In this document: positions 5,345 through 34,617 of the stretch, piece after piece | Position numbering within the stretch: position 1 is the stretch's first letter | Layout: the number at the start of each line of letters is the position of its first letter | DNA from: an uncultured Bacteroidales bacterium | Lineage (GTDB): Bacteria > Bacteroidota > Bacteroidia > Bacteroidales > UBA10428 | Direction: 5' to 3' | Assembly (NCBI GenBank): GCA_964592225.1 | Contig: CAZQCO010000010.1 | Coordinates: 142-64,141 of the forward strand | Length of the DNA: 64,000 bases | Translations under genes and position numbers: made by a program | Notes under the pieces: model-generated | What the model saw: the letters and a program-made list of their open reading frames with translations, nothing else | Databases searched by the model: none | Told to the model about the DNA's origin: nothing

Positions 5345-5358
5345 ATCGCTTAACTGAT

Positions 5359-5388
5359 TATACAGATAACGTTTTTTCTCTCTGTATA
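5359..5388. repeat. Perfect 8-bp inverted repeat (TATACAGA-N14-TCTGTATA) between the 666-aa gene and the Omp85-like gene
   Basis: tatacaga at 5359-5366 and tctgtata at 5381-5388. The repeat lies in the 89-nt gap between two co-directional genes. No U-run follows on the minus strand, so it is not a classical terminator. Confidence 0.4.
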
Positions 5389-5433
5389 TTGAGTTCGCCT
5401 AAGCACCTTCCAACCGGTGTTCGCAGCTGAAAA

Positions 5434-10984: not shown

Positions 10985-10987
10985 GGC

Positions 10988-18090: not shown

Positions 18091-20496
18091 TTAATACCTG
18101 ATGCGTAATGTTCCAATGAAATTAATGCCGGGAGAAGCCACAGCCGTTGCAAAGGTTTTGTAGAAATTGTCCATGACATTTTCCAGGGCAAATTGAATGG
18201 AGATGTTCTGATCAATCTGATAATTCGTCCGGAAGTTAATTGTGTACCATCCCTGGAAGCCATATTTTGTAGCTTCTTCAGCATTATCCTCTCCGGTAGT
18301 TGTCATATCCTCAATTTTTTTCCAACCGCTGTAAGTAAAATAAAATTCATTAGTGAATTTTTTTATTTCGTAGCTTATATAAGCCATACCAAAAACAGGA
18401 GGAATGTGAGATAAGGGTTCATCCTGACTTAAATCGCGACCGTATGTATAATTCAATGTTCCTTTGAAACTTATATTGGAATTAAGATCGGAAATCAGGC
18501 TCAGGCTAAATCCATGGATGATCCCTTCGTTCGAATTATCGTTTACAAATGTTTTTAACCATTCTCCATCGTAGAACATTGTATCGGAACCATTTTCGAA
18601 AGTATAGGGAACACGAACAATAACATTAGTGAGGAAGGAAACAAAATAGTTGCCGTTTATTTGAATATATCCGTCGAACGTTTTTGAAATTCCTAACTCA
18701 GCGTTATAGGTATATTCCGGGTCGACATAGGGATTTGGGAATGTTATCTGGTCACCTTTGGCCCTGATCTTTGCCAGGTCATCCAGATTTGGGACCCTGT
18801 ATCCGGTAGAGAGTAACAGGCTTGTTTTCAGATCCTCCGACGGGAGAAAAATAAGTCCGAGAGAGCCGGTATAAGAACTATTCTGAATGGCAATCGATTT
18901 ATAGGGAATGGTATCGGATACAAAATCACTGTACCTGGCATTAAGATTAGAGTAACTGTATCTTACACCGATAGAAGTGATGAATTTACTGCTCAGTTCA
19001 CTTTTAAGGCTCAAATAGGAAGCATAAGAGGCTGTACTGCTACCATCATCGGGATATCTAGATAAGGCTCTCGACTCTTCCTCTGTTACAATGTTTCTCA
19101 TATAAGCTTCGGAAGCGATCCAGTTGAAATTGGTTTCAAAACCATAAATAAGCCGATGGCTTTTGCTCAGCTCTTTAATCATATCGATATTTAGTGTATA
19201 AATATTTACTTTCTCCAGTTGGGTTGTTTCACTATTACTCCTGTATTTTCTGTCGATACGGCTTTCCTGGATATTTTGATAAGAATTAGTAGCAGTTAAA
19301 TTATTGAAGAAGAAATTATTTGAAGTAAAAACCGATTTTAACGAGCCAAATATCCGGTTTTGCGGGCCATAATTCCATACAGCATACTTGAGATCGCCAT
19401 TGTCGCTTGTATCGTTGAGCATATCGTACCGGGGAATATCGGAGGATGTTGAATATTGCAGATTTGCAATCAGATCGACTTTTGAAGATGGTTTATATCG
19501 GAACTTTTGGAAAAAGTCAATCTGGCTGTATCCGGTATGTCTCTGAATATTGGGATCATCATTTTCGACAATTGAATCCATACCATTGATCCGCTCCATG
19601 TAGTAAAAACATTTGCCGTAATCTTCAAGAAAAGGATCGCGGCGCGTTCCCATCCTGATATCGCCATAATCAGCATAAGTAATACTTGTAAGTGATCCGA
19701 AATGCTTTGAAGCCACATTAAAGTTAATGTGTGTTTTCCATGAACTATTGGCTGAAGCAAGCTGTAAATAGGCCTCCGCATTTGTGATAAATTCTTCCTC
19801 TTCGCTGGCAAGTTGTGGATCGCGCGTTATATAATGTATCACTCCTCCAAGGGCATCGCTTCCGTACATTAAAGCATTCGGGCCATAAATAATTTCTGTT
19901 TTCTCCAGTATGGAATTATCGATGGTTATGGAATTCTGTAAATGTCCGCTTCTGTATATAGCGTTATTCATTCGTACGCCATCAATCACCAACAGTATTT
20001 TATTTGCTTCAAAACCTCGTAAAACAGGGCTGCCTCCACCTCCCTGCGATTTTTGTACCATAACATTTCCTGTCGATGAGAGTATATCTGCTGAGGTCTG
20101 GGAAGTGAGCAGTGTAAATTGTTTTGGGGTAATGACATCAATCATATGCGGTACAAATCGTTGGTTCTCCTGATATTTGGAGGCCGAGATCACATATTCA
20201 GGTAAGATAATCACTTTTCTTGTAAGGTGTATGGTTCCGGATGAAACAGCTTCTTTATATGTATAATTTACACGTACAAATGATGGATGTTGAAAATTAA
20301 GGGTATCCGATTCGGAAAAATCATGTACAGAAGCTTTTCCGTTTTCATCGGTTAAAATAGATTTTGTCCCGGTCTGATTAAAAATTGCGACGTGTTCGAT
20401 GGGTTCATATGTGGTAGAGTTTATAATCTTAATTTCCTGTGAATATGATAAATAGGAAATGATACTACCAATTAGTAGAATAAAAACAGCTCTCAT
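18091..20496 (-). CDS. TonB-dependent receptor with N-terminal carboxypeptidase-regulatory-like domain
   Basis: 801 aa with a signal peptide. The plug region reads SPVLRGFEANKILLVIDGVRMNN...LGGVIHY. A long beta-barrel region ends in GTLRIRY. Confidence 0.9.
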   Translation of the reverse strand: MRAVFILLIGSIISYLSYSQEIKIINSTTYEPIEHVAIFNQTGTKSILTDENGKASVHDFSESDTLNFQHPSFVRVNYTYKEAVSSGTIHLTRKVIILPEYVISASKYQENQRFVPHMIDVITPKQFTLLTSQTSADILSSTGNVMVQKSQGGGGSPVLRGFEANKILLVIDGVRMNNAIYRSGHLQNSITIDNSILEKTEIIYGPNALMYGSDALGGVIHYITRDPQLASEEEEFITNAEAYLQLASANSSWKTHINFNVASKHFGSLTSITYADYGDIRMGTRRDPFLEDYGKCFYYMERINGMDSIVENDDPNIQRHTGYSQIDFFQKFRYKPSSKVDLIANLQYSTSSDIPRYDMLNDTSDNGDLKYAVWNYGPQNRIFGSLKSVFTSNNFFFNNLTATNSYQNIQESRIDRKYRSNSETTQLEKVNIYTLNIDMIKELSKSHRLIYGFETNFNWIASEAYMRNIVTEEESRALSRYPDDGSSTASYASYLSLKSELSSKFITSIGVRYSYSNLNARYSDFVSDTIPYKSIAIQNSSYTGSLGLIFLPSEDLKTSLLLSTGYRVPNLDDLAKIRAKGDQITFPNPYVDPEYTYNAELGISKTFDGYIQINGNYFVSFLTNVIVRVPYTFENGSDTMFYDGEWLKTFVNDNSNEGIIHGFSLSLISDLNSNISFKGTLNYTYGRDLSQDEPLSHIPPVFGMAYISYEIKKFTNEFYFTYSGWKKIEDMTTTGEDNAEEATKYGFQGWYTINFRTNYQIDQNISIQFALENVMDNFYKTFATAVASPGINFIGTLRIRY

Positions 20497-20649: not shown

Positions 20650-20657
20650 TAAATTTG
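20650..20657 (+). promoter_or_regulatory. Candidate -7 promoter box TAAATTTG
   Basis: Matches TAnnTTTG and lies 22 nt upstream of the ATG at 20680. Confidence 0.5.
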
Positions 20658-20679: not shown

Positions 20680-23454
20680 ATGCCAAAAAGGGTAATAATA
20701 TTCACTACAGTGCTTTTGTTAGCAATTGTGGTTATAATAGGATTTCGATTTGTACACCGGAAAAGCAAATCGTTGTCCAATCCTTTTCAGGCGATTCCTA
20801 CTGATGTTGCATTTGTTTTGCAGATTAATGATTTTCATGGTCTGGCAACCAACCTGTTTGGGAAAAATAAAGTATTTGGCAGTTTGAAAACAATTTCGCC
20901 CTTCAAAGAATTAACAAACAACATTAAGTATATCGATTCTTTGGCGTTACAGGTTAATAATTTGGCTGAATTCCTGTTTCGGAACAGGATTTTCATTTCA
21001 GGGCATTTCATTGGCGGACGAAAGACTGAATTTCTCTTTCTGATTGAGCATTCCCAAGGTGAAAATGAAAAATATGCTATTGAGGTACTGGCAGATATCA
21101 CAGGACAGACTATTAAAAAAACGGAAAGAAAGTATGAAGGAAAATCGATATATACACTAAAAATTCAGAACGATTCTCCTGTTACTTATTATATTTCGCT
21201 TCTCGAAGGGAATATTCTTGTAAGTAAATCGGTAATACTTATTGAAAATGCGATACGGCAGTATAGCCTGCCCAATTCACTGTTAACTGAAAAGGAGTTT
21301 GTTGAGATCATATCAACGGCCGGGAAGAGTAAGGAAGCCAATCTATTTATTGATCTGCGTAAGTTTAATGAAATGACCTCGGCAATTGCCAGTGATGAAT
21401 TTAATAAAAAGATAAAGGGCTATACTAATTTTGGAGGATGGATGGAACTTGATATGAATTCGACAGAAAAACTGCTTTTTCTGAATGGATTTCTAACATC
21501 AGGGGATCAGCAAAAAAGCTTTAATTCCATTTTTTCGGGAAATGATCCGGTAAATATTTCGGTCGATAAAATACTTCCTGCTTCTGTTTCTTCATTTGTA
21601 TCAATAGGTGCTGAAAACCTGGACAGGCTTCATGAGCAATATTTGCTTTACCTTAAGGAGGAGGGTAAGTTTGATGCGAGGAAAACCCGGTTGACGAAGT
21701 TGGAGAATAAATATAATCTTCGGTTTGAGGAAATATTTCTTTCCCTTATCGATAAAGAAATATCGGTGGCATACGGAGGTATTAAAGAAGGAACGTTAAA
21801 TGATCCCTCGGTATACGTTCTGATGAAATGCAGAAGTGGGACACAGGCAGAAAAAAAATTAAAAGAAATTATCAATAAAACTGGAAGCATTACGGGCAAA
21901 ACATATTCCCAGCTCACAAGCACATATATTATAGATGCAGACACAAAATATACATTGGTCGAGTTTCCGCTGGAGGATATAACCGGCTTGCTTTTTGGTG
22001 GTTTATTCTCAATATCAGGCAAAAGCTACTATACCACCATAGGAAATTATCTGGTTTTTGCCGACTCAAAAAATGCTCTTGGAGAATTTATTTATAACAA
22101 TATTCTTAGCAAGACTCTTTCTACCAATGAGTCGTATAAAGCATTTAACAATAACAGAGCTCAAAATTCCTTTTTGATTTTTTATACCAATTTAGGTCGC
22201 TCTTCACGGGTATTCAACAGATTTCTTCATCCTGATATTATTGAAACCTGGGAAAAAAATTACGATCTTTTTCAGCGTATACAACCTCTGGGAATGCAAA
22301 TTACAGAAGTTAGCGGAATGAATTATTGCAACCTGACTGTTCAGTATCTTGATGATTTCAAAGGTAAACCACAAACTACCTGGGAGAGCTTACTTGATAC
22401 TGCTTTCATATGTAAACCTCATCTTGTGGAAAACCATTATTCCAAGCAAAAAGAAATTTTCATTCAGGACTTAAGCAATACCATTTATTTGATAAATAAA
22501 GCAGGTAGAATTTTATGGAAACAAAAGATCACAGAGCCGATCAACTCAAAAGTATATCAAATCGATTATTATAAAAATGGAAAACTCCAGCTTATTTTCA
22601 GTACGGAGAATTATTTGCATTTGATCGACCGGAACGGGAATTATGTCGAAAGGTATCCGGTACGATTACGTGAACGGGCAACAGCAGGTATGGCATTATT
22701 TGATTATGAAAACAACCGGAACTATCGCATTTTTATACCCTGTGCCGATAATAAATTATATGCCTACACCAAGGATGGAAGTCTGATAAGCGGATGGATG
22801 TTCGAAGGAACGGATTATCCTGTTCTTCAGCCCCCTGAACATTTTCGGATTGAGGACAAAGATTTTATTGTTTTCGGCGATAAGTATTATGCATATATTC
22901 TCGACAGGAGAGGCAATGTAAGAGTACCGGTGGAAAGAATAATTTCAAAATCACCAAATAACCTATTTTACCTTGATGATAAAGGGAGCATTGAAAAATC
23001 GAGGATAGTTACTACCGATACAGCAGGTACCATCATAAAGATTGATTTCAACGGGCATGTTACTTCTACATTGCTTGGTAAGTATTCCAGCCAGCACTTC
23101 TTTGATTTTAAAGATATAAATGCTGATGGACAGAAAGATTATATTTTTCTGGACGGTAATATTCTTGCAGCATTTAATATGGATAAGACCGAGATTTTAA
23201 ATTTCAGTTTTTCCAACGATATAAAGCAAACTCCTATTTATTTTAATTTTTCCTATTCCGACAGGAAAATAGGAGTTGTTGATGATACAGAACATAAAAT
23301 CTACCTGTTGAATCAGGATGGCTCACTTTTTAAAGGTTTTCCCCTCGAAGGGTCGACACTTTTCAGTATTGGATATCTTGAAACTCAGGATGGTGTATTC
23401 GACCTGATTGTAGGAGGAAGAAATAACTTTTTATATAACTACTCCGTACAATAA
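20680..23454 (+). CDS. Membrane-anchored DUF3352-like protein with C-terminal 7-8-bladed beta-propeller-like repeats
   Basis: 924 aa with an N-terminal hydrophobic segment (VIIFTTVLLLAIVVIIGF). The N-terminal region is paralogous to the ORF at 5434-7434. The C-terminal ~350 aa contain repeated units such as IYLINKAGRILWK, LHLIDRNGNYVERYP, LYAYTKDGSLISGW, AYILDRRGNVRVP and IYLLNQDGSLFKGFP. Confidence 0.7.
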   Translation: MPKRVIIFTTVLLLAIVVIIGFRFVHRKSKSLSNPFQAIPTDVAFVLQINDFHGLATNLFGKNKVFGSLKTISPFKELTNNIKYIDSLALQVNNLAEFLFRNRIFISGHFIGGRKTEFLFLIEHSQGENEKYAIEVLADITGQTIKKTERKYEGKSIYTLKIQNDSPVTYYISLLEGNILVSKSVILIENAIRQYSLPNSLLTEKEFVEIISTAGKSKEANLFIDLRKFNEMTSAIASDEFNKKIKGYTNFGGWMELDMNSTEKLLFLNGFLTSGDQQKSFNSIFSGNDPVNISVDKILPASVSSFVSIGAENLDRLHEQYLLYLKEEGKFDARKTRLTKLENKYNLRFEEIFLSLIDKEISVAYGGIKEGTLNDPSVYVLMKCRSGTQAEKKLKEIINKTGSITGKTYSQLTSTYIIDADTKYTLVEFPLEDITGLLFGGLFSISGKSYYTTIGNYLVFADSKNALGEFIYNNILSKTLSTNESYKAFNNNRAQNSFLIFYTNLGRSSRVFNRFLHPDIIETWEKNYDLFQRIQPLGMQITEVSGMNYCNLTVQYLDDFKGKPQTTWESLLDTAFICKPHLVENHYSKQKEIFIQDLSNTIYLINKAGRILWKQKITEPINSKVYQIDYYKNGKLQLIFSTENYLHLIDRNGNYVERYPVRLRERATAGMALFDYENNRNYRIFIPCADNKLYAYTKDGSLISGWMFEGTDYPVLQPPEHFRIEDKDFIVFGDKYYAYILDRRGNVRVPVERIISKSPNNLFYLDDKGSIEKSRIVTTDTAGTIIKIDFNGHVTSTLLGKYSSQHFFDFKDINADGQKDYIFLDGNILAAFNMDKTEILNFSFSNDIKQTPIYFNFSYSDRKIGVVDDTEHKIYLLNQDGSLFKGFPLEGSTLFSIGYLETQDGVFDLIVGGRNNFLYNYSVQ

Positions 23455-23474
23455 ATGAATTAAAAAATACAGTC

Positions 23475-24128
23475 ATGAAACTGATTAAATTTACGCCTTT
23501 ACTACTCCTTATTTTCAGCGTTATAACCTGTATTGAGGATACCATTCAACTGGAAGATGTATCCCCTGAAATGAATGTTACGAAGGAACTTGCCTTTCCT
23601 GCAATTAATATTTCTTTGAAGTTTGATGATATAGCCGGACATGGTTATGATTCTTTAATTTTTAGGAGTGGCGATACGATATTTCTATACCTGCTGGAAG
23701 ATATCAGGCTGGAAGACACAATAGAATTGGGCGGAATAGGAGAAAATATGGAATTTGTTTTTTTGAATTTGCATTATAAAATAACCAATTATTTTCCAGT
23801 TGGGCTGGACTTAAAGTTATATTTATATGATGATGCTACCGGGCAAAATATTGACACCATTTGGTTTAGCGATCCGAATGAACTGTTTATTGACCCTGCA
23901 CCCAGCGATGTCAACGGATTAGCGATTGACGATCAGGTTGTAACAGATAGCAGTTATATTGCCTTGTCGCAAAATGTACTGGATAATTTATTCAATGAGA
24001 CTACCCAATTAGTTCTTTTTATCGAGGTGCCCTCAACAGGAGGATTTGTTAAAGTTTTGAATACTAGCAGGCTCAATATTCATTTCGGAATTGATGTGCA
24101 ATGGAGAAACGTATCGGATGATAACTAA
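23475..24128 (+). CDS. Putative lipoprotein, function unknown
   Basis: 217 aa. The signal peptide ends in FSVITC (lipobox Cys19). It starts 20 nt after the upstream stop. The C-terminus is ...NVSDDN. Confidence 0.6.
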   Translation: MKLIKFTPLLLLIFSVITCIEDTIQLEDVSPEMNVTKELAFPAINISLKFDDIAGHGYDSLIFRSGDTIFLYLLEDIRLEDTIELGGIGENMEFVFLNLHYKITNYFPVGLDLKLYLYDDATGQNIDTIWFSDPNELFIDPAPSDVNGLAIDDQVVTDSSYIALSQNVLDNLFNETTQLVLFIEVPSTGGFVKVLNTSRLNIHFGIDVQWRNVSDDN

Positions 24129-24143
24129 CAAAAACGCGGACCT

Positions 24144-25616
24144 ATGAACCAGAAAAAGACATCACTGATTTTACTGATACTGATTATGGCCACCCTTGGG
24201 GTTACGGCTCAGAGTAACACGATGTATTATCTTACCGGGGCGCCACAGTCATACAGGCTTAATCCGGCAACCCAGCCCCAATGCAGGTTTTTTCTTGGGC
24301 TCCCGGTTGTAAATTCATTTTACATGGAAACCTATAATACCTCGTTTGGAATTACCGATATGTTATGGAACGACCCGGAAACCGGACAGGTTATTTATCC
24401 ATTTCATTCCGATGCTGCTTTGGATGAGTTTTTAGGCATGTTAGATGATGAAAATACCCTTTCGCTTGATCTGGCAATTAGCCCGATTTCGATGGGTCTG
24501 GGAATTAAGGAGATGTATTTTACTTTCGATATAACTTTCAAAATAGATCAGGGCCTTTACTATCCAAGTGATTTTTTCCCTGTATTTATACCTCGTATCC
24601 CTGATGGATCAACTTTCGATTTTAGTAGCCTGGGATTCCAGGTAACCAGTTATGTTGAATATGCTTTTGGAGTTTCACGCAAGTTTATGGATGATATGTT
24701 GCAGGTTGGTATCAGGCCTAAATTAATTACAGGAATTGGGACTATATCTTCAACGGACAACAATATTACCTTGGATGCTTCCACTGATATTTATGAGCTT
24801 AATTCACAGATGGAACTTCAGATATGTGCTCCGGGATTTATTTTACCTTTGGATGAAGAAGGCGATTTCGATCTTTCGGAAGGATTTATATTTGATTCTA
24901 CTCTCTCTTCAGTTTCCGATTACAGGAAATTGTTTATGACAAACAAAGGTTTAGGAGTGGACATTGGAGTGCATGTTAAACCTATCGAAGGATTAACTCT
25001 GTCGGCAAGTCTTATCGATTTAGGGTATATAAAATGGAAAGAATATGTTCACACGTTAACTCTTGAAGGTTCAGTAGAATTCAATGGGATTGATATACAA
25101 ACGGATTCAGATACCAGCGATTTTGCCGAAAATTTACTGGATTCAATTACCAATAGTTTTGATTTTCATACCACTTCTGGAGAACCCTTCAAAACAAGCC
25201 TTGAGCCTAAATTATTCATTGGAGGATCATACGCTTTACTGCCTAAGTTGGATGTTGGACTGCTTTCCCGTTTCGATTTTACGAAATCAGGTACAAAAGC
25301 CAATGTAATGATACATGCTAACTGGCATCCTTCCAGTGCTTTCAATCTTACTGCTAACTATAGTCCTTTTGGTGGCCGTGCTTCAACATTTGGTTTGGGT
25401 TTCGCAGTCCGGGGAGGTCCAATCAGTTTTTATACGGTGGCTGACTACAGGGCTTTCAGATACAATCTTTATAAGTATGAATCGATACCTGTTTTTTTGG
25501 CTCCTTCAAACCGACATAGATTTAACATTCAGATTGGTTTTAATCTTGTATTCGGATGTAACATGAAAAAGAGACTGATGAAAGATAAGCCCATGTATTT
25601 TTCCGATGATAATTAG
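24144..25616 (+). CDS. Outer-membrane beta-barrel protein, PorP/SprF-like (possibly DUF5723, from memory)
   Basis: 490 aa with a signal peptide (GVTAQS). The mature N-terminus, NTMYYLTGAPQSYRLNPATQP, resembles the PorP/SprF N-terminal Y..[LI]NP motif. The last beta-strand, IQIGFNLVF, is followed by a 20-aa basic tail ending in SDDN. Confidence 0.6.
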   Translation: MNQKKTSLILLILIMATLGVTAQSNTMYYLTGAPQSYRLNPATQPQCRFFLGLPVVNSFYMETYNTSFGITDMLWNDPETGQVIYPFHSDAALDEFLGMLDDENTLSLDLAISPISMGLGIKEMYFTFDITFKIDQGLYYPSDFFPVFIPRIPDGSTFDFSSLGFQVTSYVEYAFGVSRKFMDDMLQVGIRPKLITGIGTISSTDNNITLDASTDIYELNSQMELQICAPGFILPLDEEGDFDLSEGFIFDSTLSSVSDYRKLFMTNKGLGVDIGVHVKPIEGLTLSASLIDLGYIKWKEYVHTLTLEGSVEFNGIDIQTDSDTSDFAENLLDSITNSFDFHTTSGEPFKTSLEPKLFIGGSYALLPKLDVGLLSRFDFTKSGTKANVMIHANWHPSSAFNLTANYSPFGGRASTFGLGFAVRGGPISFYTVADYRAFRYNLYKYESIPVFLAPSNRHRFNIQIGFNLVFGCNMKKRLMKDKPMYFSDDN

Positions 25617-25624
25617 TACATTTG
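25617..25624 (+). promoter_or_regulatory. Candidate -7 promoter box TACATTTG
   Basis: Lies 24 nt upstream of the ATG at 25649. The TTG start at 25622 in the ORF track lies inside this box. Confidence 0.5.
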
Positions 25625-25648
25625 CAACTTCATGAATCGTTAATTCAG

Positions 25649-25885
25649 ATGTTTTTTATCAGGGCATTACTACTTTTTATATTATTTTATCTTTTAATCC
25701 GGTTGATTGGAAGAATATTGTTCGGATTTCAGCGAAATTCGGTAAATTCTTCCGGAAGCAACTTTAATCCTCGCAAAAAAAAGGAAGGTGAAATTTTTAT
25801 TGATTATCAGCGGGCTAATAAAAAGAAAAAAATAAACAAGGAAGATGGCGAGTATGTTAAATACGAGGAAGTCAAGGACGATTAA
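25649..25885 (+). CDS. Small membrane protein (DUF4834-like, from memory)
   Basis: 78 aa counted from the ATG. One TM helix (ALLLFILFYLLIRLIGRILF) is followed by a charged tail ending in GEYVKYEEVKDD. Confidence 0.6.
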   Translation: MFFIRALLLFILFYLLIRLIGRILFGFQRNSVNSSGSNFNPRKKKEGEIFIDYQRANKKKKINKEDGEYVKYEEVKDD

Positions 25886-25905: not shown

Positions 25906-26658
25906 CTACAGTTTTTCTTTTATTTTCTTTGCCAGATTTGATGCAAACACAAATTCATTCAGATTTTTATCGGTAGAATCAAGAATATCATCTTTAGTCC
26001 CTTCCCAATCTTTAAAGCCTTCATAAATAAACATAACCTTTTCGCCTATTTCCATAACGGAATTCATATCGTGGGTATTAATTATTGTGGTCATATTAAA
26101 CTCATGTGTAATATCGCTTATCAGGTTGTCAATGACAATAGCTGTTATCGGATCGAGCCCTGAATTGGGTTCGTCACAAAAAAGGTATTTTGGATTTTGA
26201 ACAATTGCCCTGGCAATAGCAGCACGTTTTTGCATGCCGCCGCTGAGTTCGGCCGGATAAAGTTTATGGGCTGTAGGCAAATGTACGCGATCGAGACAAA
26301 AATCGACTCTCTCCTTTTTTTCTCCGGTTGTGAGTGTTGAAAACATATCAAGAGGGAACTTGATATTTTCTTCAACAGTGAGTGAATCGAATAGTGCCCC
26401 ACCCTGAAAAAGGTTTCCCATTTCACGTCGTAATTGTTGCCGTTCTTTCACAGACATTGTTACAAGGTTCCTGTCATGAAAATAGATACTACCTTCATCG
26501 ACCTCATGTAATCCATTGATACATTTTACCAGAACGGTTTTTCCCGAACCACTCTGGCCAATAATGAGATTGGTCTTGCCTTCATCGAAACTCACAGAAA
26601 TATCATGGAGAACCTGCTCGTTATTAAATGATTTACTGACATGTTCAACTCGAATCAT
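25906..26658 (-). CDS. mlaF: ABC transporter ATP-binding protein, MlaF-like
   Basis: 250 aa. Motifs present: Walker A (GQSGSGKT), signature (LSGGMQKR) and Walker B (LFCDEPNSGLDP). Its start overlaps the stop of the MlaE-like gene by 1 nt (TAATG). Confidence 0.8.
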   Translation of the reverse strand: MIRVEHVSKSFNNEQVLHDISVSFDEGKTNLIIGQSGSGKTVLVKCINGLHEVDEGSIYFHDRNLVTMSVKERQQLRREMGNLFQGGALFDSLTVEENIKFPLDMFSTLTTGEKKERVDFCLDRVHLPTAHKLYPAELSGGMQKRAAIARAIVQNPKYLFCDEPNSGLDPITAIVIDNLISDITHEFNMTTIINTHDMNSVMEIGEKVMFIYEGFKDWEGTKDDILDSTDKNLNEFVFASNLAKKIKEKL

Positions 26659-27461
26659 TAGGCTAAAAGTAATTGAGTTAATATAACATTAAATAACAGG
26701 ATAAGAATACTGCTTGTGACGACTCCCTTTGTACTGGCTCTACCCACTTCAAGAGCACCTCCCTTTACATAGTATCCGAAGTAGGCTGGTACTGTTGTAA
26801 TAATAATGGCAAATACAACAGTTTTCACCAGAGAATAGGTTATATAAAACGGAACGAACCAGTATTGAATCCCATAAATATAATCCATTGATGAAAGTGC
26901 TCCTGTTGCAACGGAGGCAAGCCATCCTCCAAAAACTCCGACAAACATACTAATTAGAGTCAGTATAGGATTGAAAATGACAGCTGCGATAACTTTTGGA
27001 AGGACCAGATAACTTGCCGAGTTGACGCCCATTATTTCCAACGCATCAATCTGTTCTGTAATACGCATATGACCAATCTCTGAGGCAATATTTGAACCCA
27101 CTTTCCCGGCCAATATCAGACCTACAATGGTAGATGAAAACTCGAGTAACATGGTATCCCGGGCAGTAAGTCCTATCAAATACAATGGTATGAGCGGATT
27201 CTCCAGATTATATCTGGTTTGAAGCGTAATAACAGCTCCCATGAAAATCGAAATAATAATTACAATACCTATTGAATTAATTCCCAGAGTTTCTATTTCA
27301 CTGACAACTTGTTTATAGTAAATTTTAGTTTTCTCAGGGCGGGAAATAACCCTTCCCATCAGTATAAAATATTCTCCAACAGGTTTTAAGATTTTCATAC
27401 TTCCTGAATTTGAGCGAAAATACAAATAAAATGCAAAATGAAAAGATGATTTTAATACCAT
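26658..27461 (-). CDS. mlaE: MlaE-family ABC transporter permease
   Basis: 267 aa in the ORF track. A more typical start is the internal ATG at 27398 (MKILKPVGEYF..., 246 aa). Polytopic. The size and pairing with the ATPase are typical of MlaE. Confidence 0.75.
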   Translation of the reverse strand: MVLKSSFHFAFYLYFRSNSGSMKILKPVGEYFILMGRVISRPEKTKIYYKQVVSEIETLGINSIGIVIIISIFMGAVITLQTRYNLENPLIPLYLIGLTARDTMLLEFSSTIVGLILAGKVGSNIASEIGHMRITEQIDALEIMGVNSASYLVLPKVIAAVIFNPILTLISMFVGVFGGWLASVATGALSSMDYIYGIQYWFVPFYITYSLVKTVVFAIIITTVPAYFGYYVKGGALEVGRASTKGVVTSSILILLFNVILTQLLLA

Positions 27462-27546
27462 AAACCAGTATATATATCAAAATACTCTTCTATTCTATTT
27501 CAATTTTAGTAAATTCGGATTCTGAGAAAAGAAACATATTGTTATT

Positions 27547-28641
27547 ATGGATAAAAAGAATTTTTGTGTTATTATGGCCGGAGGTATAGGCAGCAGATTC
27601 TGGCCATTGAGCCGGACCAGAAAACCCAAACAATTTTTAGATATTTTGGGGATTGGAAAAACACTGTTACAGCAAACATTTGAGCGATTTGCACAAATTA
27701 TCCCGGAGGAAAACATACTTATAGTATCGAATGAAGAGTATCAGGATTTAATACTAAAGCAGTTGCCCGGAATAAAACCTGAACAGGTTCTACTCGAACC
27801 TATGCGAAGAAATACAGCTCCCTGTATAGCCTATGCTAATTATAAAATACGTGAAATTGAACCTGAAGCGAACATTGTAGTTGCTCCTTCCGACCATTTA
27901 ATTATGAAAGAAGCAGATTTTCTGGGTGTTGTAGAAAAGGGACTTGAATATATAGCCAAAAATGATGCACTTCTCACTTTAGGAATTCAACCCAGTCGAC
28001 CTGAAACAGGTTATGGGTATATTCAAATTAATGGGAATAAAGATGCTATAGTAGTAAATGAAAGTTTTCGGAAAGTAAAAACATTCACTGAAAAACCTGA
28101 TCTAAAAATGGCTACTTTATTTTTGGAAAGTGGTGATTTCTTTTGGAATTCCGGAATTTTCTTCTGGTCGTTAAAGACAATTTCGGAGGCTTTTAAAAAG
28201 TATTTAAACGAAGTTGATAGCTTGTTTCAAGAGGGAATTGGTATATACAATACTTCAGATGAACACGATTTTATTGCAAAATCATATCCGAAATGTAAAA
28301 ACATATCAATTGACTATGGTATAATGGAGAAAGCTGAAAATGTTTATGTTCTGTGTGCCGATTTTGGTTGGTCTGACCTGGGGACCTGGGGTTCACTTTA
28401 CGATATGTCGAATAAGGATAAAAATTTAAATGCAGTTCAGGGGAAAAATGTGTCCCTTTACGATTCAACAAATTGCATTATTAATTTACCTAATGATAAG
28501 CTTGCCGTTATCCAGGGACTTGATGACTATATTATTGTCGATTCCGATAACATTCTTTTAATTTGCAGGAAAGATGATGAACAGAAAATTAAAAATTTTG
28601 TGAATGATGTAAAGCTTGAAAAGGGAGAGAATTATATCTAA
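27547..28641 (+). CDS. Mannose-1-phosphate guanylyltransferase (nucleotidyltransferase domain only)
   Basis: 364 aa. Contains the CVIMAGGIGSRFWPLSR N-terminal motif, EPMRRNTAPCIAYA and GWSDLGTWGSLY. Confidence 0.85.
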   Translation: MDKKNFCVIMAGGIGSRFWPLSRTRKPKQFLDILGIGKTLLQQTFERFAQIIPEENILIVSNEEYQDLILKQLPGIKPEQVLLEPMRRNTAPCIAYANYKIREIEPEANIVVAPSDHLIMKEADFLGVVEKGLEYIAKNDALLTLGIQPSRPETGYGYIQINGNKDAIVVNESFRKVKTFTEKPDLKMATLFLESGDFFWNSGIFFWSLKTISEAFKKYLNEVDSLFQEGIGIYNTSDEHDFIAKSYPKCKNISIDYGIMEKAENVYVLCADFGWSDLGTWGSLYDMSNKDKNLNAVQGKNVSLYDSTNCIINLPNDKLAVIQGLDDYIIVDSDNILLICRKDDEQKIKNFVNDVKLEKGENYI

Positions 28642-28665
28642 ATTTTCTGAAATATATTAAAAGAA

Positions 28666-28699
28666 AAGAGGCTGTCGAATCCGGCGGCCTCTTTTTTAT
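28666..28699. terminator. Bidirectional rho-independent terminator between convergent manC-like and gldN genes
   Basis: The stem aagaggc (28666-28672) / gcctctt (28687-28693) has further inner pairs. It is followed by a T-run on the plus strand, and by ttttctttt on the minus strand. Confidence 0.65.
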
Positions 28700-28717
28700 T
28701 CTGATCGATTAAATATT

Positions 28718-29581
28718 TTAATATTCCCAAAGATCATGCTCCATATTAAACAGCCATTCTTTCTGCATCTCAGCCTCCATTAAAGCATCGACACCCTGTG
28801 TATACATGTTATTCCAACGATTATCATACACATTGGATACTGCAAATATATGACTGTCGAATCGTCGTTGCATAAAGAAATCATCGAATGATATTCTTTG
28901 AGAATCGTTCATACGATTAAAAACTTCATGATTTGCCAATATGGGACGAATTTCGGGGAAGTATACCCAAAATGTCTGTTTCTGAAGAATTTCTTCAGTT
29001 GGCATACCCTCTTCATCGAGACGATTGTATACCCTGATTGGACTAATTCCAATTATTCTTACTTTCATTACCGAGTGATTCTTATCGAAGAACCATTTTT
29101 CCTTCACCAGGAGCTTCTTAATTTCATAGGTTTTTCTTGGATTTTCAACAACTACCTCTACAAGTTGACCGGTAGTAGGGTCAGTCGTTTTTGTTGTATC
29201 AATTCCGGCATCAAATGCATTATCAACCTGGTCAATAGTCATTTGAGCTGTAAATTCGTTGAGAGGATCATTGGCCGAAAAAGCCCTGACTCCTTCATTA
29301 TCGACTCCCCAGAGAACAAGATCAACAAAATTCATTCTTCCTCCGATAGGTTTTGTAGGGTAATATAAGGGCAGGTTTTTTTTCTGTCGAAGATCAATCA
29401 TGCGGTAGATAATTTTCGACCACATTACATCGGCTTCCCTGATGTATTCATATGGAACCGGACTTTTATGCGGAATGTGTTCCCTCACATATACTTCTCT
29501 CAAATTATCCTGTGCATTCAGCTTATAGGAGAATACCAGAATCATAATTCCAATTAGCAAAAACACAATCTTTTTCATCAT
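28718..29581 (-). CDS. gldN: T9SS / gliding motility protein GldN (PorN)
   Basis: 287 aa with a signal peptide. It is the last gene of the porP-gldKLMN operon, 15 nt after gldM. Size and position are typical of GldN. Confidence 0.85.
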   Translation of the reverse strand: MMKKIVFLLIGIMILVFSYKLNAQDNLREVYVREHIPHKSPVPYEYIREADVMWSKIIYRMIDLRQKKNLPLYYPTKPIGGRMNFVDLVLWGVDNEGVRAFSANDPLNEFTAQMTIDQVDNAFDAGIDTTKTTDPTTGQLVEVVVENPRKTYEIKKLLVKEKWFFDKNHSVMKVRIIGISPIRVYNRLDEEGMPTEEILQKQTFWVYFPEIRPILANHEVFNRMNDSQRISFDDFFMQRRFDSHIFAVSNVYDNRWNNMYTQGVDALMEAEMQKEWLFNMEHDLWEY

Positions 29582-29596
29582 ATCTAATTTAAAAGT

Positions 29597-31243
29597 TTAA
29601 TTCAATTTAAAATTAATGGTCGATAAAGGTCGTGTTGACCCATCGGGACCGACAGCTTTAATATCTTGAATATATACATTATTCCCGCGATTAAGATTTT
29701 TAAGAAGATTCATTTGTTCGGGAGTAAATCGATTTGATTTTGAAGTAAATTCCCGAACAAAACCCTGTACAACAGCGGAAACAGTAAATTCGGTAATCGT
29801 AAATTTCAGGTCGAAATCAAAATCTTCTCCCATTTCGGCAACAACACCAAGCTGGGCAAGCAAGACACTCTGGTTGATATGACCACCCTTTTGTCCGTTT
29901 ACCATGGCATAAGGACTAGGTACTGTTTTAACACGAAATTCCTTTCGACCCATCTCCCTTCTTTGACCATCGATATTCGCATATACAACTACAAAAGCAT
30001 TTCCCGGTCGAATAGGTTTGATAATATAGGAAGATCCTTGTTTTACATGACGTGCATTGGTAACACTAATATCAATTTTATTAGGTTGCACTCCTGCTAC
30101 AGATACATCGACAGGATTATCAACACCCAGATAGAAAACATTCATCTTAGTGGGAGCAACTGTTATGGAACCTTCTGCGACAAGGTAGCTTTTCTTAAAT
30201 GGTTTTGTAATAGTCCCGGTAGGTCCGGTAAGTTCAATTATACCTCCCCACTTTTTGATACCTAGCGACGATGCAGGTACAGAATAAATACCTTTTCCCG
30301 ATCCTCTTGATACTTTTAGACTATCATATTTTACTCCGGGACGAAGCGTGTACATTGGAACTCCATCAACAACAGTTGAATCATAGGGTCGTGGATCGGT
30401 TGTAACATAAATTTTTGGTGAAGCTGTTGTATCACTGGCAGCAAGAAAAACTTCCGCCTTGTAATCATTTCCTCTGATAATATAGCTGGAATTTGGAATA
30501 ACGGTGGCATTGAGCTGGTTAAATTTGAAAGATCCGGCATCAATTTGACCATACAAGTATTTTAGCGCTTCCGATTCTGCGTTTCTTACATTGATTTGTA
30601 AACCAGTCATTATGGTTAATACACCTGAAAGAGGGAGGTGTTCAAAATGTTCCCGTTCCCATTCATGCAACTCAGTGTCACCTTCTCCATGAGCAGAGGG
30701 ACCTGTATTTAATCCCGATTCAATCGAAGCTCGAATTAAGGATGCATTTTCTGCATTTACCACCTCATTAATCAGGTAATTACGATAATCCTCAATGAGC
30801 AGCTTCAGTTCTTTTCCTGCTTTATCGTTGTTATCACCAATCATAATGAAAGCAGGATGATCAGTATTATCTTTATTCTTAATAAATTTAGTGTCAACAT
30901 TATTTTCTGCATCGTAAGCTTCATCATCTTTTGATAGCTTAAGTATCTCGATTTTCTTAAGCTGTATGAATTCCACGATTTGGTCAGCCATTTCCTGAAC
31001 CTTAATGGCTTTATCTTTCCATGGCTCGACCTTTGCAGGATTAAGTTCATACTGAATATCAAAATCGCCAAGTACTTTACTATTTGTTGCTTCGAGAGTT
31101 TCGATGGTTTTTTTAAGTCCCTGATCAAGCACATCGAAAGCATTAAGTACTTCGTTTGATACATTCAGTGCTAACATGGCCATCAGCACCAAATACATCA
31201 TGCCGATCATCTTTTGTCTTGGGGTTTCTTTACCGTGGGCCAT
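29597..31243 (-). CDS. gldM: T9SS / gliding motility protein GldM (PorM)
   Basis: 548 aa. The N-terminus, MAHGKETPRQKMIGMMYLVLMAMLALNVS, is the hallmark GldM start with its single TM helix. Confidence 0.92.
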   Translation of the reverse strand: MAHGKETPRQKMIGMMYLVLMAMLALNVSNEVLNAFDVLDQGLKKTIETLEATNSKVLGDFDIQYELNPAKVEPWKDKAIKVQEMADQIVEFIQLKKIEILKLSKDDEAYDAENNVDTKFIKNKDNTDHPAFIMIGDNNDKAGKELKLLIEDYRNYLINEVVNAENASLIRASIESGLNTGPSAHGEGDTELHEWEREHFEHLPLSGVLTIMTGLQINVRNAESEALKYLYGQIDAGSFKFNQLNATVIPNSSYIIRGNDYKAEVFLAASDTTASPKIYVTTDPRPYDSTVVDGVPMYTLRPGVKYDSLKVSRGSGKGIYSVPASSLGIKKWGGIIELTGPTGTITKPFKKSYLVAEGSITVAPTKMNVFYLGVDNPVDVSVAGVQPNKIDISVTNARHVKQGSSYIIKPIRPGNAFVVVYANIDGQRREMGRKEFRVKTVPSPYAMVNGQKGGHINQSVLLAQLGVVAEMGEDFDFDLKFTITEFTVSAVVQGFVREFTSKSNRFTPEQMNLLKNLNRGNNVYIQDIKAVGPDGSTRPLSTINFKLN

Positions 31244-31284
31244 AAATTATTGAGATCTGCTAATTTCTTATTATTAAAACGGTA

Positions 31285-32226
31285 TTATGGCTTAGTAAGC
31301 ACATCCATTGTGGTGAGCATATTGCCATAAATAGAATTCAATGAAGAAATACTCTCCTTAAGTTTTGCTATTTCTTCCTTGTATTTATTGGTCTCATCAA
31401 CTGATTCTTTCAGGTTCTTTATCATCGATTGTAAACCAGAATAGAGTTCTATTGTGCCTTTCATATGACCTTGGCCTTCACGAATCTGAGTTTCATAAAC
31501 TGAATTAAGTTCAGCGAGGCTTTTATTAAGCTTTTCAATATGAGTTTCATGTTCTTTGCTTCCAAGCGAGATATTCTTTTGTTCTTCCTGAATGGTGGCA
31601 GCAATCGATTGATACGAGTCGGCAATTTCATTGCCAGAAAGCACAATTTTATTGGCTGCTTCGAAATATGCCGAAGTAAGATTCTTTGTTGAATCTTTAA
31701 TTGAATCAGTTGTTGATGTGTAAGTATCTGCCAATCCGTTAACCGATGAAGCAGCTCCTTGCAAGTTACTGACAAACTCTTTGGTTGCAACCGTTGCTTC
31801 AGATATATCTGATAATCCTTTGGCTGTTTTATTTAGCTTACTGAATCCTTCTCCCAACTGTATTAATGCCTCCGGGTCAACACCGGTATGTCCAAGAATT
31901 TGCTCAATTCTTTCAACAGGACGGGATGATCCTTCTTCTAGTAGTTTTCTTTCTTTGAAGTTTTCAATTTCATCCGGATCTGAAAGTCCGGCCAATTCAG
32001 GATAGACAAGAGTCCAGTCGAGCTCTTCGTGTAATGGTTCGAAGGCTGAAAAGAAAAAGATAATAGACTCAGTAACAAGGCCGAAAGTAATAATTAGTGC
32101 ACCTCCTGGCCAATGATTGATTTTAAACAGCGCTCCAATAATGACAACTGAAGCACCCCAACCATAAAGTTTGGCCATAAAATTTCTCCAGCCTGAACTT
32201 TGAACAATATCGGTTACATTGATCAT
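31285..32226 (-). CDS. gldL: T9SS / gliding motility protein GldL (PorL)
   Basis: 313 aa. Two N-terminal TM helices (KLYGWGASVVIIGALFKINHWPGG... and ESIIFFFSAFEP) are followed by a long helical cytoplasmic region. Confidence 0.9.
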   Translation of the reverse strand: MINVTDIVQSSGWRNFMAKLYGWGASVVIIGALFKINHWPGGALIITFGLVTESIIFFFSAFEPLHEELDWTLVYPELAGLSDPDEIENFKERKLLEEGSSRPVERIEQILGHTGVDPEALIQLGEGFSKLNKTAKGLSDISEATVATKEFVSNLQGAASSVNGLADTYTSTTDSIKDSTKNLTSAYFEAANKIVLSGNEIADSYQSIAATIQEEQKNISLGSKEHETHIEKLNKSLAELNSVYETQIREGQGHMKGTIELYSGLQSMIKNLKESVDETNKYKEEIAKLKESISSLNSIYGNMLTTMDVLTKP

Positions 32227-32259
32227 AATAAGAAAGTTTTATTCTGTGAGAATTGCTTA

Positions 32260-33600
32260 TTAATTAGAACCAAGATAGGATCTTACACATCTGAATCCGA
32301 TATAGGATTTTGCAGTGTCCTGATACTCATAAGTACGTGCACCACATTGGAGAAAGTACCCAATATCTTTCCAGGAACCTCCACGAATAACCTTCCTTTT
32401 TAATACAGGAGGATCATCCGGCAATGCATTGTATTTATAATCAGGATTCAAATCGTGTGAGAAGATGTAAGCTGATTCATCATATGCATTAGCTGTCCAT
32501 TCAGCAACATTTCCAGACATATCATACAAACCGTATTCATTAGGCTGATATGTACCAACAGCTAAAGTTACAGAGCCACCATCATCGATATAGTTACCTC
32601 TGAGAGGTTTAAAATTGGCAAGAAAACAACCTTCTTTATTACGGGTATAATATCCACCCCAAGGATACATCGAATGTTCAAGTCCGCCACGTGCTGCATA
32701 TTCCCATTCCGATTCTATCGGTAAACGGTACTCGTGCACAGGGGGTTGACCAGCAGCAGAAAGCGAAGCATTAAAAAATTCTGTACGCCAGATACAAAAT
32801 GCTGAAGCTTGTTTCCAGGTAACGCCGACAACAGGATAATTATCATATGCAGGATGCCAGAAATATCGTGTTGTCATGGGTTCATTAAATGAATATGTAA
32901 AGTCGGCAATCCAGCAAAGCGTATCGGGATAAATATTAACAACGTCACGGATGATGAAATTTGAACGATCTTGTATTTCAATTCTTTCGCCATCGCTGTT
33001 AGTAACATATCCCTCGTATTTTTTTGTTTGATAATTATAACGATTAGTCTTTCTTGCAGCTTGCTTTAAATCAACCCAGAAATATTCATACATTAACTTC
33101 CGAGTATCAATTTCTTTTCTGCCATAAAAGCGTTCCTGATCGTTATAATATAATTCATTTAATGTCTCATTGACTTCTTCGTCTCTGAAATCAATTCTAA
33201 TGTCCCAATTCAATTGTGGTGGGTCGATGGGATTTCCAAACTGATCTTCAGAAATTACATAATCGTCGAGTACTTCGCCGAGCATACGTCTCATGATGGA
33301 ATCGCGCACCCAATATACAAATTGGCGGTATTCGTTGTTAGTTATTTCTGTTTCATCCATCCAGAAAGGATCGACAGTAATAGTGCGCGAATAAGTATTT
33401 TGTGCCCATGGCACATCCTGATCGTTAAGCCCCATAACAAAACTACCCTGAGGAACGAAAATCATTCCAAAAGGATCAGGTTCAAAATATCTTGCTCTTC
33501 CGGGGACTCCGGTAAGTTCGCCACCACGGTAATTTGAACAGCTACTAATTACGAGAATAGCGAAAATGAAACCAAAAGAAATTATCTTTTTCATAATCAA
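32260..33600 (-). CDS. gldK: T9SS / gliding motility lipoprotein GldK (PorK), FGE-sulfatase (SUMF1) fold
   Basis: 446 aa with lipobox ISSC. SUMF1-type motifs are present: VTWKQASAFCIW, YRLPIESEWEYAARGG, GNVAEWT and RGGSW. Confidence 0.92.
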   Translation of the reverse strand: MIMKKIISFGFIFAILVISSCSNYRGGELTGVPGRARYFEPDPFGMIFVPQGSFVMGLNDQDVPWAQNTYSRTITVDPFWMDETEITNNEYRQFVYWVRDSIMRRMLGEVLDDYVISEDQFGNPIDPPQLNWDIRIDFRDEEVNETLNELYYNDQERFYGRKEIDTRKLMYEYFWVDLKQAARKTNRYNYQTKKYEGYVTNSDGERIEIQDRSNFIIRDVVNIYPDTLCWIADFTYSFNEPMTTRYFWHPAYDNYPVVGVTWKQASAFCIWRTEFFNASLSAAGQPPVHEYRLPIESEWEYAARGGLEHSMYPWGGYYTRNKEGCFLANFKPLRGNYIDDGGSVTLAVGTYQPNEYGLYDMSGNVAEWTANAYDESAYIFSHDLNPDYKYNALPDDPPVLKRKVIRGGSWKDIGYFLQCGARTYEYQDTAKSYIGFRCVRSYLGSN

Positions 33601-33666
33601 AGGAATTTATCTGAAATCACAATTTTTTCCTAGTAAAATAAAACTTATATAAATTTAATTAATTTT

Positions 33667-34617
33667 TTATAAATACCTAATGCTCTTATATTTTTGAGGA
33701 GCCTTTTCAACACCGATCTTAAAACAATAATTCAGCACAAATTCGTGCGAACCCTGAGTATGGTTAATCAATGCACTTGTTTGCACATCGTATGAATATC
33801 CGATCTTAAATCCTTCGAAAAGCTCTATACCTATCATTCCTACTACAGCTTCTCCGGTTCTATAGGTAACGCCTCCCCAGATCTTTTTATTGTACAAGCA
33901 TGTGAGATTCAAATCCATATCTGTTTCAATTCCATCAGATTTTAAAAGAACAGCCGGCTTTAATTCCCATGCCGGATTTGAAAGCTGCATATTATATCCT
34001 GCGGTTACGTAATATTGGCGATTAAGGTTATACTTTGATTCATAATTTCCAGGTTCGGTGGCTACTGTAGTTACTTCCGGATTGTTTAAGTGCAAGGCAG
34101 AGACACCAAAGTAGATATCTTCGGCACGATAAAAAATTCCGGCACCCATGGTCAGTGTCATACCTTCCGGATCGCCCTGGGGAATAAATTCATCTGCCAC
34201 AGAACCATCGCTTGTTATCCAGTTAAAACCTTCAATTGTATTATCGACAAAACCAGCTTCAATGCCTATTCCAAGTGAACCATCGCCAATGTTGAAACGA
34301 AAAGCATAGGTAAGATTAAGATTGATATCGGAATTAAATCCCAGGACATCCTGGTATACAGAAAGACCTACTCCGTGTTGGGCTCCCAATAATGAAAACG
34401 GAGCTTCGGCATTGAAAAAGAAACTTTCAGGATTTCCGGGGAAACCTACCATTTGTTGTCGTATTATGCCGGTTAAACACACCATATCCATACTACCTGC
34501 ACTGCCTGGATTTATTCGCAGATAATCATATGTGAAATGCGATACCTGTGGCAATTGAATTGCACTGGCAGAAAAATGCATCGCGATTACAACAATTAAT
34601 ATGGGTATTTTTTTCAT
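33667..34617 (-). CDS. porP: PorP/SprF family T9SS outer-membrane protein
   Basis: 316 aa with a signal peptide. Contains the N-terminal motif QVSHFTYDYLRINPGSAG and RQQMVGFPGNP. The barrel ends in HEFVLNYCF followed by a 17-aa basic tail. The gene sits directly upstream of gldK. Confidence 0.85.
   Translation of the reverse strand: MKKIPILIVVIAMHFSASAIQLPQVSHFTYDYLRINPGSAGSMDMVCLTGIIRQQMVGFPGNPESFFFNAEAPFSLLGAQHGVGLSVYQDVLGFNSDINLNLTYAFRFNIGDGSLGIGIEAGFVDNTIEGFNWITSDGSVADEFIPQGDPEGMTLTMGAGIFYRAEDIYFGVSALHLNNPEVTTVATEPGNYESKYNLNRQYYVTAGYNMQLSNPAWELKPAVLLKSDGIETDMDLNLTCLYNKKIWGGVTYRTGEAVVGMIGIELFEGFKIGYSYDVQTSALINHTQGSHEFVLNYCFKIGVEKAPQKYKSIRYL

Follow-up and report, generated by a model that had tools for sequence, protein, structure and literature searches.

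A conserved Bacteroidales operon encoding a DUF3352-propeller anchor protein, a lipoprotein and a DUF5723 outer-membrane barrel: a candidate trans-envelope module

Does a run of neighbouring envelope genes, none with an assigned function, encode a single system, and what might such a system handle? We address this question for positions 20680-25885 of a 64,000-nucleotide (nt) stretch of DNA from an uncultured Bacteroidales bacterium, the whole of which is called the window below. The locus encodes, on the plus strand, a 924-amino-acid (aa) protein with an N-terminal membrane anchor, a 217-aa lipoprotein and a 490-aa outer-membrane (OM) barrel, and is completed by a 78-aa membrane protein (Table 1). 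An earlier account made from the letters and their translations (the sequence-only reading) had proposed that these parts add up to a trans-envelope machine; the three closely spaced genes that it described, with gaps of 20 nt (924/217 aa) and 15 nt (217/490 aa), are borne out by the list of open reading frames (ORFs). Comparison with related genomes indicates that they are likely a conserved Bacteroidales operon for one co-functioning envelope module. [quoted passage not shown]

The anchor protein belongs to a large family: searches recover 5629 clusters (50% identity) at E≤1e-3 and, with the threshold tightened to E≤1e-30, 3145. Nearly all of the top 150 clusters are full-length at ~920 aa, and relatives occur in at least 559 GTDB species genomes, with cultured carriers such as Sunxiuqinia among them. 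Synteny was counted over the 80 best loci, 69 of them informative, by scoring a gene of the barrel's family, DUF5723, that lay on the same strand and no more than 3.5 kb downstream of the anchor gene. Such a gene was present in 61 of the 69 loci, at anchor-protein identities of 32-94% and in the order anchor protein, lipoprotein, barrel, so that the trio seen in the window is conserved across relatives. The nearest genome, an uncultured Bacteroidales metagenome-assembled genome (L001), encodes proteins 94-97% identical to those described here. At the other extreme, in the divergent lineage L083, a gap of 7 nt separates the gene of an 892-aa anchor-protein orthologue (hhalign E 2e-118) from the barrel gene downstream, and the intervening lipoprotein is absent. 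The barrel is missing in three loci (L026, L034, L035); one inversion may be the cause, these loci ending too soon to show it.

Conserved gene order around the locus extends over large blocks, reaching from UDG and a Na/Pi transporter through an arginase-like gene, and gene-order conservation alone is therefore weak evidence for a shared role. These blocks, and the fact that each partner can occur alone, would fit the view that the genes are functionally unrelated and share an inherited order within one bacterial order. We consider this very unlikely, given that the genes lie on one strand with intergenic gaps of 7-30 nt across relatives, that the pairing is kept down to ~28-32% identity while the flanking genes rearrange, and that all of the products are envelope proteins with complementary predicted locations.

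The architecture read from the sequence of the anchor protein, with an N-terminal anchor, a large domain and propeller blades bearing a repeat motif, is recovered by Pfam, by AlphaFold2 (AF2) modelling and by Foldseek. DUF3352 (PF11832) matches at 39.6 bits, above its cut-off of 26.8, and some orthologues score under that cut-off; propeller-type Pfam families match as well, all of them under their cut-offs, and no NCBIfam model matches the protein. The AF2 model, made from 37 sequences, has a predicted local distance difference test score (pLDDT) of 87 and comprises a helix at residues 2-26, confidently modelled mixed alpha/beta structure at ~45-556 and a propeller at 565-924. When the whole protein was compared to the PDB with Foldseek, only eight-bladed propellers were found (Cake8 and Bagel8, both designed, YxaL and BamB), with target-normalised template modelling (TM) scores of ~0.65-0.74; those of the BamB entries 6lyq_B, 8qpv_B and 4imm are ~0.64-0.65. 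The propeller dominates the matches in the viral library in the same way. The blade motif h-Y-h-h-[DN]-x-x-G recurs at residues 602, 646, 693, 738, 762 and 874. A PDB sequence search with the anchor-protein profile returned designed propellers only, one with a DUF3352-only profile returned nothing, and hhalign found no relationship between DUF3352 and the LolA-like protein, GldM or GldN of the window. Mean column conservation is 0.72 in the propeller versus 0.56 in the DUF3352 region, and the propeller is the best-conserved part of the protein.

The orientation of this protein could not be settled by eye, as the sequence-only reading had conceded, and is better approached through statistics over the whole family. 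In 180 homologues the flanks of the anchor helix carry net charges of +1.85 on the N-terminal side and +1.17 on the C-terminal side, and in distant family members the C-terminal flank is clearly acidic, a pattern that favours an N-in helix and a periplasmic large domain. Most of the protein thus most likely lies in the periplasm. BamB and YxaL resemble its propeller in their eight-bladed PQQ-like fold, in a similar repeat and in periplasmic location (target-normalised TM ~0.65). BamB, however, is a ~390-aa (~40 kDa) lipoprotein that binds the POTRA domains of BamA, whereas the predicted propeller here takes up the last third of a protein of 924 aa that has no lipobox and carries a transmembrane anchor and a ~520-aa DUF3352 domain. 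The machinery for beta-barrel assembly (BAM) of Bacteroides thetaiotaomicron appears to be without BamB (PMC12578637).

The third gene encodes an OM barrel, as had been proposed, although not one of the PorP-like type. DUF5723 (PF18990) matches it at 264.4 bits (cut-off 26.8) over profile positions 1-376 of 376, and the AF2 model (pLDDT 79) has ~16-18 strands preceded by an N-terminal pre-barrel segment of ~80 residues. PorP_SprF (PF11751), in contrast, gives no Pfam match, and hhalign of the DUF5723 alignment against the PorP/SprF protein of the window gives a probability of 0.2%. The top Foldseek match of the barrel is 9n2d_B from the BAM complex of Flavobacterium johnsoniae (E 7e-8, TM 0.35/0.42), a chain that we take to be BamG, judging by its length and by what the papers describe rather than by the entry itself. 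The corresponding BAM chains of Porphyromonas gingivalis and B. thetaiotaomicron (9hjm_F and 9hiv_F) also match, as do FadL, TodX and TbuX (TM 0.4-0.5, E ~1e-5) and AlgE, and FadL NPA mutants are among the PDB fold matches. Judged from the model, the barrel is FadL-like in fold only, not by sequence family. Assignment to the BamG or FadL family by sequence is not supported, given a PDB profile search with the barrel family that returned no sequence at E≤10, BamG included, and a non-significant hhalign comparison with FadL.

The resemblance to FadL, TodX and TbuX may extend to the N-terminal segment with its N-P-A. N40 and P41 are two of the eleven invariant columns among 52 diverse sequences, A42 is at least 90% conserved, and the longer motif Y-[YF]-M-x2-[VM]-P-Q-x4-N-P-A spans the whole DUF5723 family. 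FadL channels have a conserved NPA in the hatch, and we regard the N-P-A here as a candidate lead toward a hatch of that type. The DUF5723 gene is followed, in certain relatives, by that of another barrel, of the Toluene_X (FadL) type (L039 17195-18817); hhalign aligns the N-P-A weakly with the FNPA of this second barrel, at a probability of 32%. Compared to FadL, TodX and TbuX, the DUF5723 barrel is larger, with ~16-18 predicted strands, has a basic C-terminal tail and no Toluene_X match, and is encoded with a dedicated lipoprotein and a partner that is predicted to be anchored in the inner membrane. The tail, a candidate docking peptide, is present in ~51 of the 59 barrels linked to an anchor protein. 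Other members of the DUF5723 family have a TSP3-OmpA domain fused at the C-terminus (for example P0125, and P0135 at L099 8001-10418), and this fusion would place the C-terminal end of the barrel in the periplasm, where the basic tail probably lies too. The TSP3-OmpA domain is of the peptidoglycan-binding type.

The second gene encodes a lipoprotein, as first read: its lipobox Cys19 follows LLLLIFSVIT, and the sequence continues as C-I-E-D-T-I. No Pfam or NCBIfam family matches it, and its profile finds only weak similarities, to 4h3w in the PDB (E 0.03) and to DUF4621 (E 0.017). Orthologues are mostly ~550 aa, with ~700 aa in a few, and the window form (~220 aa) shares 27% identity with residues 343-549 of its 559-aa L007 orthologue. 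It corresponds to the signal peptide, the first residues and the last ~190 residues of the ~550-aa form, and by this alignment is a shortened, one-domain remnant of a family that has no Pfam model. The ~550-aa family (L007 12796-14475 and orthologues) looks internally repeated, with the 217-aa protein aligning to three regions of it.

Bacteroidota lipoproteins are exported to the surface by a signal that reads K-(D/E)2 or Q-A-(D/E)2, or that consists of acidic residues, two or more, just after the lipidated Cys (PMC5080379; PMC12578637). All 61 orthologues of the lipoprotein have the lipobox Cys, and 54 of them have at least two acidic residues at positions +1 to +6; position +2 is K, Q or H in 43/61 and position +3 is D or E in 55/61, while 17 match the loosened motif [KQ]-x(0-1)-[DE]-[DE]. 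This acidic N-terminus fits the surface-export signal, and the lipoprotein is probably surface-exposed. Because of this signal it is probably not a periplasmic bridge, for which the sequence-only reading, in counting it as a periplasmic or lipid-anchored component, had left room. Its length is variable, and it is absent in L083.

A FadL-like barrel encoded next to a surface lipoprotein brings to mind BamG-BamH (9n2d, 9hiv, 9hjm). BamG, a homologue of FadL, holds BamH, a lipoprotein of the surface (PMC12611786; PMC12578637); it is bound to BamA and BamH, and its conserved extended N-terminus threads the lateral opening. BamG2-BamH2 paralogues in Bacteroidota show that such barrel-lipoprotein pairs duplicate (PMC12611786; PMC12578637). 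The operon could therefore encode a helper of OM-protein or surface-lipoprotein biogenesis, in which the BamB-like propeller would serve to present clients, with a BamG/BamH-like pair helping to insert or flip a specific set of OM or surface proteins. BamG from three Bacteroidota BAM structures is among the top fold matches of the barrel (9n2d_B, 9hjm_F, 9hiv_F) and BamB among those of the propeller (6lyq_B, 8qpv_B, 4imm), the lipoprotein carries a surface-export-like signal, and a DUF3352 paralogue elsewhere in the window adjoins an Omp85 gene. We nevertheless think a biogenesis role quite unlikely. BamG is ~390 aa long and belongs to the Toluene_X family (PMC12578637), whereas the barrel does not and has no sequence similarity to BamG in the PDB profile search (E≤10); its TM score to BamG (0.35-0.42) is no better than to transport-type FadL channels. 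The lipoprotein is of another family than BamH, variable in length and absent from L083, and the adjacency of the paralogue to Omp85 is not conserved.

Nutrient uptake is a second use to which such parts could be put. Caught by the surface lipoprotein, a hydrophobic substrate would enter through the FadL-like barrel and pass to the anchor protein in the periplasm, and the divergent TonB-dependent receptor gene might share the regulon. The FadL-like fold and the N-P-A motif point this way, as do the position of a surface-type lipoprotein gene immediately 5' of the barrel gene, the presence of the receptor gene directly upstream in divergent orientation in 34 of 66 loci, and the second, Toluene_X-type barrel that follows in relatives such as L039. 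However, the receptor is missing from many loci, the cluster is without catabolic, regulatory or inner-membrane transporter genes, and the strong conservation of the propeller suggests a fixed protein partner, not a variable ligand. Canonical FadL channels are not known to require a partner in the periplasm or the inner membrane. Uptake thus strikes us as distinctly improbable.

What the module might serve is suggested by its neighbours. T9SS genes lie near the anchor gene in several, at least four, arrangements across genomes. In the type seen in the window, MlaFE and ManC stand between the operon and gldNMLK-porP, and the same block is found in the divergent L083. In other genomes porP-gldKLMN lies directly upstream of the anchor gene (L018, L023) or 250-300 nt downstream of it on the same strand (L022, L026, L034, L035), or sprA and a U32 peptidase gene lie upstream (L071, L075, L078). 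The T9SS neighbourhood persists through these rearrangements, which is suggestive of a functional link. In the Prolixibacteraceae-type genomes the anchor gene comes after the U32 peptidase gene (L071 960-12751; L086 8631-12769); the SprA translocon gene of these genomes encodes 2511 aa and precedes the anchor gene in three loci, with no DUF5723 gene within 10 kb.

These arrangements raise the possibility that the operon is a dedicated T9SS or gliding accessory, with the anchor protein coupling to GldKLMN/SprA, for example as a periplasmic scaffold, and the barrel acting as a PorV-like shuttle or docking site that would serve a subset of cargo or an associated lipoprotein. In its favour are the four or more placements beside T9SS core genes, including those just downstream of sprA and the U32 peptidase gene, and the recurrence of the gene block in L083. 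PorP/SprF and PorV are, like the barrel, OM barrels encoded near T9SS genes, and PorV is itself a FadL homologue (PMC12578637). On the other hand, PorV is outside the top 50 fold matches of the barrel, and PorP/SprF is set apart by the Pfam and hhalign results given above. No terminal T9SS sorting domain was found by Pfam in any operon protein, the sole Por_Secre_tail match being internal (residues 122-186, 17.9 bits) and under its cut-off, and none of these proteins matches a Por, Gld or Spr family in Pfam. The lipoprotein-barrel pairs of L098 and L099 are not beside T9SS core genes, and the anchor protein of L086 and L076 is without T9SS neighbours. We know of no such component from T9SS genetics in P. 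gingivalis or F. johnsoniae, in which the presence of the families was not looked at. A dedicated accessory is in our view unlikely.

In the trans-envelope module that we favour, the barrel and the probably surface-exposed lipoprotein would form an OM complex like BamG-BamH or SusC-SusD, and the anchor protein, fixed in the inner membrane, would extend ~900 residues into the periplasm. There the propeller would dock on the periplasmic face of the barrel, perhaps on the basic C-terminal tail, and the module would transfer or retain a molecule, hydrophobic or lipid-anchored, that moves between periplasm and outer leaflet by a FadL-type lateral route, with the small DUF4834 protein as an inner-membrane accessory. 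Since the operon is linked to MlaFE, ManC and T9SS genes, the cargo or client would most plausibly be part of the T9SS- or gliding-dependent surface; this is the weakest step.

Several observations weigh against this account. The partnership of anchor protein and barrel is not obligatory: L098 and L099 have lipoprotein-barrel pairs (hhalign E 1e-45 and 2e-43) but no anchor protein nearby, and the Prolixibacteraceae-type loci L071, L075, L076, L078 and L086 have the anchor protein but no barrel within 10 kb. With each partner found alone, the unit is modular, and the lipoprotein-barrel pair is the widespread element, to which the anchor protein was added in a large Bacteroidales clade. As to a FadL-type route, the barrel has no Toluene_X (PF03349) match in Pfam and so falls outside the FadL family profile, its hhalign comparison with Escherichia coli FadL is not significant, the query-normalised TM scores of its FadL-type matches are 0.35-0.41, and it is modelled with ~16-18 strands as opposed to the 14 of the FadL family. 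The tail proposed for docking is absent from ~8 of the 59 linked barrels. On the side of the anchor protein, no fold relatives of the DUF3352 region were identified and the fold matches of the modelled propeller are generic. MlaFE is convergent with the operon and has its own transcription unit, and the proximity of T9SS genes could be inherited macro-synteny shuffled by inversions. Finally, that the anchor protein, barrel and lipoprotein associate physically as one machine is an inference.

A parallel in gene order is offered by TamB-TamA/TamL and pairs like it, in which a signal-anchored large periplasmic protein is likewise followed by an OM barrel, with complementary predicted locations. 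The operon differs in that no AsmA/DUF490-type domain was found by Pfam, that DUF3352 is modelled as mixed alpha/beta and not as a beta-taco, and that the DUF5723 barrel is not an Omp85 protein. A literature search returned no functional study of DUF3352, DUF5723 or DUF4834, by name or by Pfam number; a lead from P. gingivalis is a table that lists a vesicle protein with DUF5723 beside a T9SS cargo. Profile, PDB and literature searches together place none of the parts in a characterised pathway, in agreement with the view that they lack an assigned function.

How lipoproteins and lipid-anchored proteins are transported to the Bacteroidota surface, and what links the T9SS to the remainder of the envelope, are open questions, for which the locus offers a defined and widely conserved gene set (more than 3,000 anchor clusters at 50% identity). 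If the parts work together, functions would follow for DUF3352, DUF5723, DUF4834 and a lipoprotein family that Pfam does not cover; otherwise the gain would be no more than an annotated hypothetical operon of an ordinary, conserved kind. Nothing so far shows an unusual mechanism, the picture being that of a FadL-like channel with dedicated partners. A bolder version would have the anchor protein, barrel, lipoprotein and DUF4834 protein form an unrecognised Bacteroidales trans-envelope machine working with the T9SS and gliding apparatus. We hold this to be doubtful; if true, the machine might, for example, serve in the delivery or anchoring of lipid-linked material, or of some class of lipoproteins, at the surface, and would be a missing piece of how these bacteria build their outer surface.

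Table 1. Positions in the window of the operon, its parts and the neighbouring and paralogous genes discussed in the text.
Feature	Position	Strand	Basis or remark
Candidate promoter box TAAATTTG, Bacteroidota -7-like	20650..20657	+	Ends 22 nt 5' of the ATG of the 924-aa gene
924-aa anchor protein: signal-anchor, DUF3352 domain, predicted eight-bladed propeller	20680..23454	+	Pfam, AF2, Foldseek
Predicted hydrophobic anchor helix, residues ~5-26	20692..20757	+	AF2 helix 2-26
DUF3352 alpha/beta region, residues ~35-556	20782..22347	+	PF11832 score, AF2
Predicted eight-bladed PQQ/BamB-like beta-propeller, residues ~557-924	22348..23451	+	Foldseek, blade motif
217-aa lipoprotein, lipobox Cys19 then I-E-D	23475..24128	+	ORF and signal sequence
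490-aa DUF5723 outer-membrane beta-barrel, signal peptide ending between ...VTA and QS	24144..25616	+	PF18990, AF2, Foldseek
N40-P41-A42 in the pre-barrel segment, candidate FadL-type hatch motif	24261..24269	+	Conservation
Basic C-terminal tail, G-C-x-[KR]-x-D-K-P-M, candidate docking peptide	25557..25613	+	Consensus, after last strand
Candidate promoter box TACATTTG	25617..25624	+	Immediately 3' of the barrel stop codon; 24 nt 5' of the small-ORF ATG
78-aa single-pass membrane protein, DUF4834-like	25649..25885	+	87 aa if TTG at 25622
TonB-dependent receptor, divergent	18091..20496	-	Nearest haem/haemoglobin type, below cut-off
Context block linked to the operon: MlaF, MlaE, ManC, GldN, GldM, GldL, GldK, PorP/SprF	25906..34617	- except ManC	
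MlaF and MlaE	25906-27461	-	Separate transcription unit, convergent with the operon
ManC, GDP-mannose pyrophosphorylase	27547-28641	+	
GldN, GldM, GldL, GldK, PorP/SprF	28718-34617	-	
666-aa anchor, DUF3352 and MORN_2 protein	5434-7434	-	DUF3352 60.6 bits
426-aa POTRA/Omp85 barrel	4064-5344	-	Pfam

The promoter boxes named in the sequence-only reading are present where it placed them, 5' of the anchor gene (TAAATTTG) and of the small ORF (TACATTTG). TAnnTTTG, the class of motif to which they belong, shows no enrichment over the window, with 66 matches versus 76.6 expected, so that both are plausible as candidate promoter boxes by their position only. Scans for sigma-70 promoters and for terminators gave nothing informative.

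The small ORF itself lies where it had been described, after the barrel gene. Its product scores 21.5 bits against PF16118 (DUF4834; cut-off 27.8), and 40.2 bits are reached by its positional orthologue from L007. A small ORF also follows the barrel in L083, L087 and L100, and across loci one of the DUF4834 type is often found in this place.

Annotation of the window genes confirms the neighbours that had been recognised, namely the TonB receptor, MlaEF, the GDP-mannose enzyme and the T9SS core. MlaE-MlaF is a two-gene unit without an adjacent MCE (MlaD) gene, and no MlaD was found among the 42 larger ORFs of the window that were scanned against Pfam. In most related genomes the pair stands tail-to-tail with the operon.

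A second copy of the arrangement had been seen at 4064-7434, and this interpretation does not hold. The 666-aa protein encoded there is a DUF3352 paralogue with MORN_2 repeats at its C-terminus, 21-23% identical to the 924-aa protein, and its 426-aa neighbour is not a DUF5723 barrel: in Pfam it matches POTRA at 26.5 bits (cut-off 21.3) and, marginally, Omp85 at 24.6 bits (cut-off 24.0), with the BamA and Omp85 models of NCBIfam matching below their cut-offs. The adjacency of the two genes is confined to close relatives, being kept in L089, L094 and L092 (92-58% identity) and lost in L090 (61%) and L082 (43%). On these comparisons the pair is a DUF3352 paralogue with a barrel of another family beside it, rather than a repeat of the system. 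The small Omp85 protein at 4064-5344 has one POTRA domain, and a cyclase gene (7525-8163) upstream of the paralogue is its steadier neighbour.

Other features of the window were noted in passing. Another triad of inner-membrane, periplasmic and OM proteins lies on the minus strand, consisting of an MMPL/RND-type transporter (61666-63924), a LolA_like protein (60913-61647) and a DUF1302-like barrel (59531-60898). Four ORFs, of 391 aa (also without an NCBIfam match), 400, 184 and 235 aa, have no Pfam match, at sites that include 14017-15192 (+), 747-1949 (-) and 10430-11695 (-); conservation in related metagenome contigs is seen for the 400-aa ORF. A 782-aa protein (56820-59168, +) has an N-terminal CarboxypepD_reg domain and no match to a Plug or TonB-receptor barrel at E≤1e-4. 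Lastly, a DUF4270 protein (45019-46416, +) is encoded between a glycogen-synthase-like gene (44208-45035), which it overlaps by 17 nt, and glmS (46422-48257).

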